From positions 48,303 to 112,302 of the forward strand of contig VBAP01000009.1 in the NCBI GenBank assembly GCA_005882335.1: a stretch of DNA of 64,000 nt, read 5' to 3'. Positions 49,800 to 49,966 of the stretch are shown in pieces. Within the stretch, counting starts at the first letter, position 1. Each line of letters starts with the position of its first letter. The notes under the pieces are model-generated. The model was not told the origin of the DNA. It searched no databases and was given only the letters and a program-made list of their open reading frames with translations. The stretch is from Candidatus Segetimicrobium genomatis. Its GTDB lineage: Bacteria > Sysuimicrobiota > Sysuimicrobiia > Sysuimicrobiales > Kaftiobacteriaceae. A program made the position numbers and the translations under genes.

Positions 49800-49966
49800 A
49801 CATACGGGAACAGGGAAACGCGGGAACATGAAACCGCACTCCCTTCACTTGCTTCTCCTCCAAAGGGAAGAGGCTTGCTGTGACTCATCTTGTCCGCGTT
49901 CCCCCGTTTCCCCGTTCCCGCGCTCCGCCCCGAGCCGACGTAGTCGGCGTGGGGGTTCCCGTCTTC
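49800..49966. repeat. GGGAAC/GTTCCC-family ladder element with a conserved 48-nt core hairpin (copy B)
   Basis: Arm GGGAACAG GGAAACGC GGGAACAT, a 68-nt spacer, then arm GTTCCCCC GTTTCCCC GTTCCCGC. The core gttcccgcgctccgCCCCGAGCCGACgtaGTCGGCGTGGGGgttcccg is at 49914-49961. It contains the recO stop and its last about 25 codons. Confidence 0.85.

Follow-up and report, generated by a model that had tools for sequence, protein, structure and literature searches.

A hairpin repeat nested in G-rich octamer arrays at the recO and cdd ends of an ANGP1 genome, probably a small dispersed palindromic element

Introduction

Two housekeeping genes, recO and cdd, end in nearly the same 48-nt sequence in a 64,000-nt stretch of bacterial DNA (hereafter the window), and this sequence can fold into a hairpin. 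The RecO encoded here is 100% identical to a database protein (P0001) named 'MAG: Bacillati bacterium ANGP1', which places the locus in an uncultured candidate phylum found in soil. What is such a hairpin doing at the ends of two unrelated genes: is it a folded element useful to the host, a feature of the proteins, or a copy of a repeat that spreads? A preliminary description of this DNA regarded the two copies as MITE-like insertions with a selected fold. Our analysis favours, with modest confidence, a related answer, namely that the 48-mer is a copy of a lineage-specific, non-autonomous small dispersed palindromic repeat of the REP or RPE type. The repeat family is previously undescribed; it is of a familiar bacterial kind, and no new kind of system.

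The two copies in the window

Both genes lie on the minus strand (recO, ORF 49885-50679; cdd, ORF 54406-54924) and the hairpin modules lie on their sense strand. The degenerate 48-mer matches the 64-kb window exactly twice, at 49914-49961 and 54433-54480, and not once in 100 shuffled sequences. A covariance model (R1) likewise finds just two full copies in the window. The first interval is the one originally given, and the second lies 1 nt further right than its earlier placement (54432-54479). The features of the two copies are as follows.

49914 to 49960, minus strand: hairpin module, copy A, in the last recO codons (pattern match; R1, 75.7 bits, E 2e-18); in gene sense GGGAAC / CCCCACGCCGAC-TAC-GTCGGCTCGGGG / CGGAGCGC / GGGAAC
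49928 to 49954, minus strand: 27-nt hairpin of copy A (pair statistics, 52 variants)
49885 to 49887, minus strand: recO stop codon TGA, 27 nt downstream of the 48-mer
54433 to 54479, minus strand: hairpin module, copy B, in the last cdd codons (pattern match; R1, 71.5 bits); in gene sense GGGAAC / CCCCACGCCGGC-TCC-GCCGGCTCGGGG / CGGGGCGC / GGGAAC
54447 to 54473, minus strand: 27-nt hairpin of copy B (sequence reading and pair statistics)
54406 to 54408, minus strand: cdd stop codon TGA, 25 nt downstream of the 48-mer, overlapping the ATG of a 19-codon mini-ORF

The hairpin of copy A has a CCCC/GGGG base of 4 bp, then two conserved mismatches, and above these an upper stem of 6 bp that ends in a 3-nt loop. 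Several details of the preliminary description need correction here. It counted five differences between the two cores and took four of them as compensatory, but only four differences are present (core positions 11, 25, 28 and 31) and these include a single compensatory pair, 25/31 (A-T versus G-C), since position 28 belongs to the loop and position 11 to the 5' flank outside the stem. The one G-U wobble ascribed to the 12-bp stem is in fact two adjacent non-Watson-Crick positions, 5 and 6 of the 12-position stem, which read G.T and A.G on the plus strand and A.C and C.T in gene sense. Furthermore, the element does not carry the stop codons, as both TGAs fall 25-27 nt downstream of the 48-mer in gene sense. 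The ORF translations do bear out that the two copies are read in different frames, so that RecO ends in ...TGTPTPTTSARGGARERGNGGTRTR and Cdd in ...REPPRRLRRLGAGRGNARRRRRLR.

By themselves, the two window copies say little for selection on structure. Their 47-mers do not fold with better energy than shuffled sequences (z -0.4 to -1.2), and energy is uninformative here because the sequence is so GC-rich; the case for structure therefore comes from covariation in further copies.

The recO and cdd-era junctions

Each copy is embedded in an array of G-rich octamers (TRF period 8 at 49893-49916 for recO and at 54475-54496 for cdd), and an inverted array lies on the far side of each junction.

49898 to 49913, minus strand: further octamer units GGAAAC and GGGAAC (gene sense) after copy A (sequence, TRF)
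49806 to 49827, plus strand: inverted partner array on the recO side, GGGAACAGGGAAACGCGGGAAC on the plus strand, GTTCCC units in gene sense
54482 to 54505, minus strand: degenerate octamers CGGAAC, GGGAAG and GGGATC (gene sense) in cdd, upstream of copy B (sequence, TRF)
54307 to 54332, plus strand: inverted partner array at cdd-era, GGGGAACCCGGGAACGGGGGAACGCG on the plus strand, three GTTCCC-type units in gene sense

At recO, the inverted partner lies between the stop codon and a -10-like motif, TGTTATAGT, of the next small ORF. The units at 49898-49913, together with the 3' GGGAAC of the module (49914-49919), form the 5' arm of a predicted stem of about 25 bp with this partner in a 171-nt RNA fold (z -4.1; 1 of 200 shuffles equal), and the module hairpin folds as a separate stem-loop 5' of this long array stem. 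At cdd-era, the arms at 54433-54505 and 54307-54332 could pair around the junction, with unremarkable energy (z 0.07). The third unit of the partner array there reads GGTTCC, the array is translated as RVPPFPGSP at the start of Era, and the same inverted arm is found in four relatives (L158, L160, L161 and L163).

Some further observations concern these junctions and their genes. The C-rich GTTCCC array at 54307-54332 is part of an N-terminal extension of Era (VTENQSRVPPFPGSPVAGFRSGF...) which is conserved across related genomes. At 54347-54408, the cdd TGA overlaps the ATG of the 19-codon mini-ORF MVASGVFRRLHTKDLLHRA, whose own TGA overlaps the era GTG (54348-54350), giving a chain of overlapping stops and starts; in L160 and L161, cdd and era overlap directly (GTGA). 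Between recO and glyQ lies a small conserved ORF (49516-49802) of 87 aa (84-87 aa in relatives) with no Pfam match on record, which is preceded by the extended -10-like TGTTATAGT (49794-49802), and this motif immediately follows the inverted array. In the leader between this ORF and glyQ, a hairpin resembling a terminator is accompanied by a T-run (49395-49415, minus strand); it may be an attenuator, and Rfam gave no match for it, T-box included. Finally, the window RecO is without a 7-residue LDPRQRT-like segment (around 50030-50040) which is found in all 29 aligned orthologues, and either a genuine deletion of 21 nt or an assembly error could account for this.

Copies beyond the window

A genome scan covering one genome per species was carried out with a hairpin pattern in which two stem positions and the loop were left free. 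Matches of 27 nt with the characteristic flanks came only from the ANGP1 MAGs NP_1 (about 19) and NP_4 (8), and matches from other phyla had no such flanks and are chance matches. Copies in ANGP1 share one layout: GGGA(A/T/G/C)C, the hairpin CCCCACGCC-NN-C-loop-G-NN-GGCTCGGGG, the tail CGGAGCGC, and then at least one GGGAAC unit (2-nt spacing). A metagenome scan anchored on the flanks alone (GGGAAC, 25-31 free bases, CGGAGCGCGGGAAC), which let the stem vary freely, turned up this hairpin at dozens of soil loci. The covariance model, built from 52 distinct 47-mers, gave 74 matches in 0.46 Mb of retrieved loci and none in viral contigs. A wider search of the kind proposed in the preliminary description yielded about 27 copies in two MAGs, and in the 52 variants four apical stem pairs covary.

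Where modules stand in tandem they are direct repeats with periods of 41 or 49 nt, and at two loci (L014 and L017) the hairpin is solitary with almost no array. The recO hairpin of the window recurs identically in L085, and identical hairpins are shared by other unrelated loci. In addition, several loci have short forms without an apex, in which CCCCACG is followed by four bases and CTCGGGG.

Conservation of the hairpin

Among the 52 variants, four apical pairs have double-sided changes (CG/GC/UA, CG/GC/UA/UG, GC/CG and GC/AU/CG). The number of double-change cells, which counts copies and not independent events, is 38, compared to 11.4 +/- 2.2 after shuffling (0 of 500 reach 38) and to at most 4 in slid controls with shifted 3' partners. 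Unpaired cells are few, the rare intermediates being U.G and C.A, and one subfamily has an unpaired apex (GGTCGC...GCTCCC). Other parts hardly vary at all: the CCCC/GGGG base shows zero variation in the 52 variants, the two mismatched stem positions stay mismatched in 50-51 of them, and the lower stem and CGGAGCGC tail are nearly invariant across copies.

The same division is seen at orthologous sites. At recO in four genomes, the non-apex positions are 26/26 identical while the flanking recO DNA is 66-91% identical and the apex matches at 3-6 of 9 positions; the apices differ yet are always complementary (GAC/GTC, GGC/GCC, CGC/GCG). Similarly, in a relative that is 74% identical, the cdd hairpin has another, likewise complementary apex but retains the locus-specific tail CGGGGCGC. 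The pairing of the hairpin is maintained, with complementarity alone needed at the apex and exact sequence needed in the stem base, the mismatches and the tail. As such, the selection on a folded structure claimed in the preliminary description is supported by covariation in the 52 variants, but not by the window copies alone or by folding energy. Apex variants are shared between loci, and therefore a copy replaced by gene conversion can look as if it had undergone compensatory substitution in place; at the apex, the one is as likely as the other.

Placement, orientation and a possible RNA function

Orientation was assessed at 56 clusters, made non-redundant by their flanks, using a codon-usage log-likelihood trained on long ORFs, as GC3-based ORF calling is too permissive in DNA of 65% GC. 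The upstream 300 nt are coding on the module strand in 45 cases and on the other strand in 9. The module is gene-sense at about 45 of the 54 scorable loci, which lends no support to the earlier suggestion that any functional transcript would be antisense to the genes. GC skew just tracks the coding strand, so that the skew test is uninformative on whether orientation follows replication or transcription. At L058, two modules on opposite strands are each sense to their own upstream gene, and the genes between these convergent modules are ordinary as read from their translations (a MazG-like protein, a dipeptidase and a ureohydrolase); L024/L106 is a clear antisense exception. With respect to the stop of a long sense ORF, 37 of the 56 clusters lie within about 120 nt, the stop being 4-58 nt before the module (n=20), inside it (n=3) or 48-150 nt after its start (n=14), and 17 of the 56 either extend the protein as a translated C-terminal tail or include the stop codon.

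These placements bring up the main rival explanation, a host-useful cis-acting RNA hairpin in mRNAs that has been recruited repeatedly at gene ends, where it could protect 3' ends, act in termination or processing, or bind a protein. The sense bias fits it, as do the L058 pair and the clustering near stops; selection on an RNA fold would explain the covariation and the conserved non-apex parts, and at recO the hairpin precedes the long array stem with its favourable z score. However, a terminator and promoter scan gave no site of either kind at 49914-49961 or 54433-54480, and the hairpin is followed there not by a T-run but by CGGAGCGCGGGAAC in gene sense, so the combination of GC-rich hairpin and T-run that marks an intrinsic terminator is not present at either module. 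Several copies are deep in essential coding regions, which would be senseless for a terminator or a 3' stabiliser, and close relatives are without the hairpin at the same junctions. Moreover, the stem of the 47-mer carries its two mismatches in the sense RNA and is slightly less stable there than on the opposite strand (-19.4 versus -21.2 kcal/mol). No Rfam family matches the module: at gathering thresholds the only match in the window is a tRNA elsewhere, and an E-value scan of both module regions returned sub-threshold miRNA-like noise alone. Taken together, an RNA element of this kind is unlikely, though it deserves to be kept in mind.

Host arrays, gain and loss of the module

The unit of the host array is the 8-nt G-rich repeat GGGAACNN, and the module lies within (GGGAACNN)2-4. 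Across 250 kb of ANGP1 DNA, arrays have two units (n=30), three (n=22) or four (n=13), and none is longer. They lie where one gene meets the next; at the stop the sense strand is the G-rich one, and an inverted C-rich partner often precedes the following gene. Stop-codon placement and inverted pairing are both seen at the recO and cdd-era junctions of the window and of L158-L163.

Related genomes have these arrays with and without the hairpin. In L163 (RecO 69% identical), there are four GGGAAC units at the recO end, 4+4 inverted units at cdd-era and no hairpin at either site. At cdd, comparison of the filled site in the window with the empty site of L159 (Cdd 92% identical) gives a net difference of 33 nt, the 27-nt hairpin plus CGGGGC, or equivalently 41 nt when one octamer is counted. 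GGGAAC flanks this insert on both sides, but GGGAAC is the array unit too, so a target duplication would be indistinguishable from the array. Further cdd alleles have a 24-nt internal deletion of the hairpin (L158, 99% identical), a filled site with another apex and the same CGGGGCGC mark (L160), or a downstream GTTCCC arm with the upstream G-rich array and hairpin both absent (L161). Presence/absence polymorphism is therefore found for cdd (against L159, L158 and L161) and for recO and cdd-era (against L163). Allele lengths at cdd differ by 33 and 57 nt, both frame-preserving, which is consistent with a need to stop at the TGA overlapping the mini-ORF. On sequence comparison, the arrays are evidently the older layer and the hairpin module a later insert.

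The arrays themselves offer another reading, in which the hairpin is a structured loop within a putative G-quadruplex of the flanking GGG tracts (a quadruplex-duplex hybrid, in DNA or RNA) and the stem would be kept for holding the G-tracts of an interrupted GGGAACNN array together. The hairpin always abuts GGGAAC units directly, the sampled ANGP1 arrays stop at four units, and at the apex complementarity alone matters. The GGGNATC 7-mers of Xanthomonas and Nostoc are described as having a GGG tract, occurring preferentially as four units and forming G4 structures, and as lying in sense orientation at stop codons or in antisense orientation ahead of ORFs, often as inverted pairs (Rehm et al. 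2015, PMC4692102). The ANGP1 arrays resemble them in their tandem GGG-tract units, up to four in number, their inverted pairs and partial overlap with ORF ends, and differ in the 8-nt unit GGGAACNN and the lineage; a term search of PMC4692102 showed no mention of a conserved hairpin nested in such arrays. The strict conservation of CCCCACG/CTCGGGG, the two mismatches and the CGGAGCGC tail is left unexplained by a quadruplex, and the solitary hairpins L014 and L017 with almost no array also speak against it. This makes a quadruplex role improbable.

It could also be supposed that the fold is not selected at all, and that the apparent compensation comes from palindrome mutation by intrastrand template switching together with concerted evolution. 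Apex variants are common to unrelated loci, orthologous sites exchange the whole apex and not single pairs, and apex deletions are common, as expected of unstable palindromes. Template switching should nevertheless erase the two mismatches, which are retained in nearly all variants, and the complete identity of the constant parts where flanking DNA has fallen to 66% requires either selection or very active conversion, the latter being itself a propagation mechanism. The chances of this explanation are likewise slim.

Reading frames and protein tails

Copies are read in frame inside ValRS (anticodon-binding domain), LeuRS, GlmS, Ddl (N-terminal domain) and PrmC, encoded by valS, leuS, glmS, ddl and prmC, with Pfam domains on both sides, and others form C-terminal tails of a Mur ligase and a VWA protein (Pfam). 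Across loci all three frames are in use and yield three peptides (GTPTP..ARGGA, GNPHAG..GSGRSAGT and REPPR..LGA.RGN), with PTPASPARGGAR as an example of a peptide predicted from module translation. A query of the protein database with the low-complexity translated module returned 67 candidates, none significant. As all three frames are used and the tails of orthologues differ, the Arg/Gly tails are by-products, as the preliminary description had proposed.

It had also suggested checking where RecO and Cdd orthologues end, and the outcome is divided. Most Cdd orthologues end directly after ERLLGRR. Among close relatives, P0122 shows the array but no hairpin, P0121 a hairpin that is in part deleted and P0123 a hairpin read in another frame. 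The RecO tail motif, on the other hand, is widely kept in one frame: in orthologues of as little as about 59% identity the C-terminus still reads R-E-R-G-N-x-G-T-R, a translation of GGGAACNN units in which the variable x codon combines the 2-nt spacer with the G that opens the following unit. This pattern would be consistent with an array conserved as DNA and not as peptide; the hairpin-encoded RecO segment PTPxxxARGGA is present in the closest relatives only. That the Arg/Gly-rich tails and inserts are selected protein features, such as nucleic-acid-binding tails, is hardly credible, since the RecO motif that favours it varies exactly at the spacer of the DNA repeat, different loci use all three frames, and Cdd orthologues are mostly tail-less, with two relatives reading the hairpin in different frames.

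Other repeats in the window and related loci

Several other repeats accompany the module. Inverted arrays of 9-nt units, with GTCTNCCCN facing GGGAAGACN, lie at 12898-13050, 37855-37950 and 43277-43377; the one at 12900-13045 has 40-nt arms that are 88% complementary around a 66-nt spacer, the architecture of the GGGAAC arrays with a different unit. At 40673-40772 and 49452-49483 there are inverted arrays of an 8-nt unit, AGTTGGAN, with 27-nt arms that are 96% complementary, together with a direct array of ACGTTGGA x3.8 in the upstream leader of glyQ. A separate palindromic family, CCCTCTCCC-N-GGGAGAGGG plus flanks (about 65 nt), has four copies in both orientations (49314-49380, 59967-60033, 60072-60138 and 61270-61336), one of which abuts the glyQ start. 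Heptamer arrays (CGAATCA/CGAGTCA, GGATCCA and GGGATCN) occur at 30121-30149 of the window and at L045, L090, L096, L008, L024 and L047; they recur beside hairpin modules and elsewhere, and are co-translated with the module in glmS (L045) and ddl (L008).

Comparison with known elements

A genome carries tens of REPs, which are short imperfect palindromes that lie mostly near gene 3' ends and are extragenic by definition, and REPINs are inverted doublets of them mobilised by RAYT transposases (Bertels & Rainey 2011, PMC3116915). The ANGP1 module has the REP features of a conserved stem base with mismatches, a variable top, tandem clusters, location at gene 3' ends and a short imperfect palindrome repeated many times per genome (about 19 in NP_1, 8 in NP_4, 74 model matches). 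Unlike REPs, it often overlaps or sits in coding sequence, as both window copies do in the ends of their ORFs, and it is embedded in an octamer simple-repeat array. Unlike REPINs, modules are single or in direct tandem and not inverted doublets. A crude HUH regex found no RAYT in the retrieved DNA.

Rickettsia palindromic elements (RPEs) are about 100-150 bp and encode one conserved peptide in one frame (Minnick 2024, PMC10969869). The in-frame entry of the module into unrelated housekeeping genes, where it is tolerated as an extra peptide segment, recalls these elements. The module is four times smaller (33-41 nt), uses all three frames, and belongs to another lineage with no known sequence relationship.

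The earlier comparison with MITEs does not hold in the strict sense, as the module is without terminal inverted repeats, is only 33-41 nt long and is embedded in the octamer array. Its ends are direct (GGGAAC...GGGAAC) and the sole inverted repeat is the internal hairpin, although presence/absence polymorphism between related genomes is a MITE-like property. The nearest analogue could be the small dispersed repeats of Nostoc punctiforme, which are reportedly about 21-27 nt long and nested in tandem heptamers, with a mechanism of spread that is said to be unknown; their sequences and lineage differ.

Integron attC sites are imperfect palindromes at gene 3' ends with a fixed orientation, unpaired bases in a conserved base and a variable centre. 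They act as folded single strands, have RYYYAAC/GTTRRRY ends and are found in cassette arrays next to an integrase. The module differs in having GGGAAC/GTTCCC flanks and in lying in housekeeping operons and coding regions with no cassette-array context. attC sites, CRISPR repeats and terminators were all rejected on sequence and context.

Proposed mechanism of spread

The unit of the repeat is the 27-nt hairpin plus the constant tail CGGAGCGC with GGGAAC on both sides, and the hairpin was evidently added to older arrays in one sub-clade of the uncultured soil candidate phylum ANGP1. Modules are gained, tandem-duplicated and lost as a unit of net 33 nt, or of 41 nt with one octamer. As a dispersed repeat of the REP or RPE type, the module would be non-autonomous and selfish or nearly neutral, probably co-transcribed with host genes and frequently translated, with Arg/Gly/Pro-rich protein tails as a by-product; the surviving copies would be those that keep the frame or lie near stop codons. 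We infer that the invariant part may be recognised by a protein on a folded single strand (DNA or RNA) during copying, a step that would resemble the recognition of REPs by RAYT or of IS200/IS605 ends. Alternatively, arrays may pass the module on to one another by gene conversion.

The retrieved DNA yielded neither a transposase nor any other gene for mobilisation; the search for an HUH motif was a crude one, with a regex on six-frame translations of 1.2 Mb (about 0.5 Mb of it ANGP1), and gave no match. There are no inverted doublets flanking a gene and no close inverted pairs among the 74 model matches. Against a selfish reading, the module is without terminal inverted repeats and its only possible target duplication is GGGAAC; furthermore, the sense bias (~45:9) and stop clustering (37/56) also fit a host-useful RNA element.

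A bolder version of the proposal is doubtful, namely that the module is one of the smallest bacterial mobile units (33-41 nt) and colonises G-rich octamer arrays without a classical transposase. It could do so through recognition of a hairpin/quadruplex single-strand structure or, given the sense bias, through a transcript-derived copying step (RNA or cDNA).

Implications

For genome annotation, the Arg/Gly/Pro-rich tails and inserts in proteins of ANGP1 MAGs should be regarded as repeat-derived and not as domains. A hairpin unit of 33-41 nt can enter essential genes and rewrite their C-termini without destroying the proteins. The combination of an invariant stem base, fixed mismatches and a covarying apex in quadruplex-type repeats points to a recognition step. 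If a transposase-free unit of this kind does exist, it would give a handle on the unexplained spread of tiny repeats nested in simple-repeat arrays, such as those of cyanobacteria.
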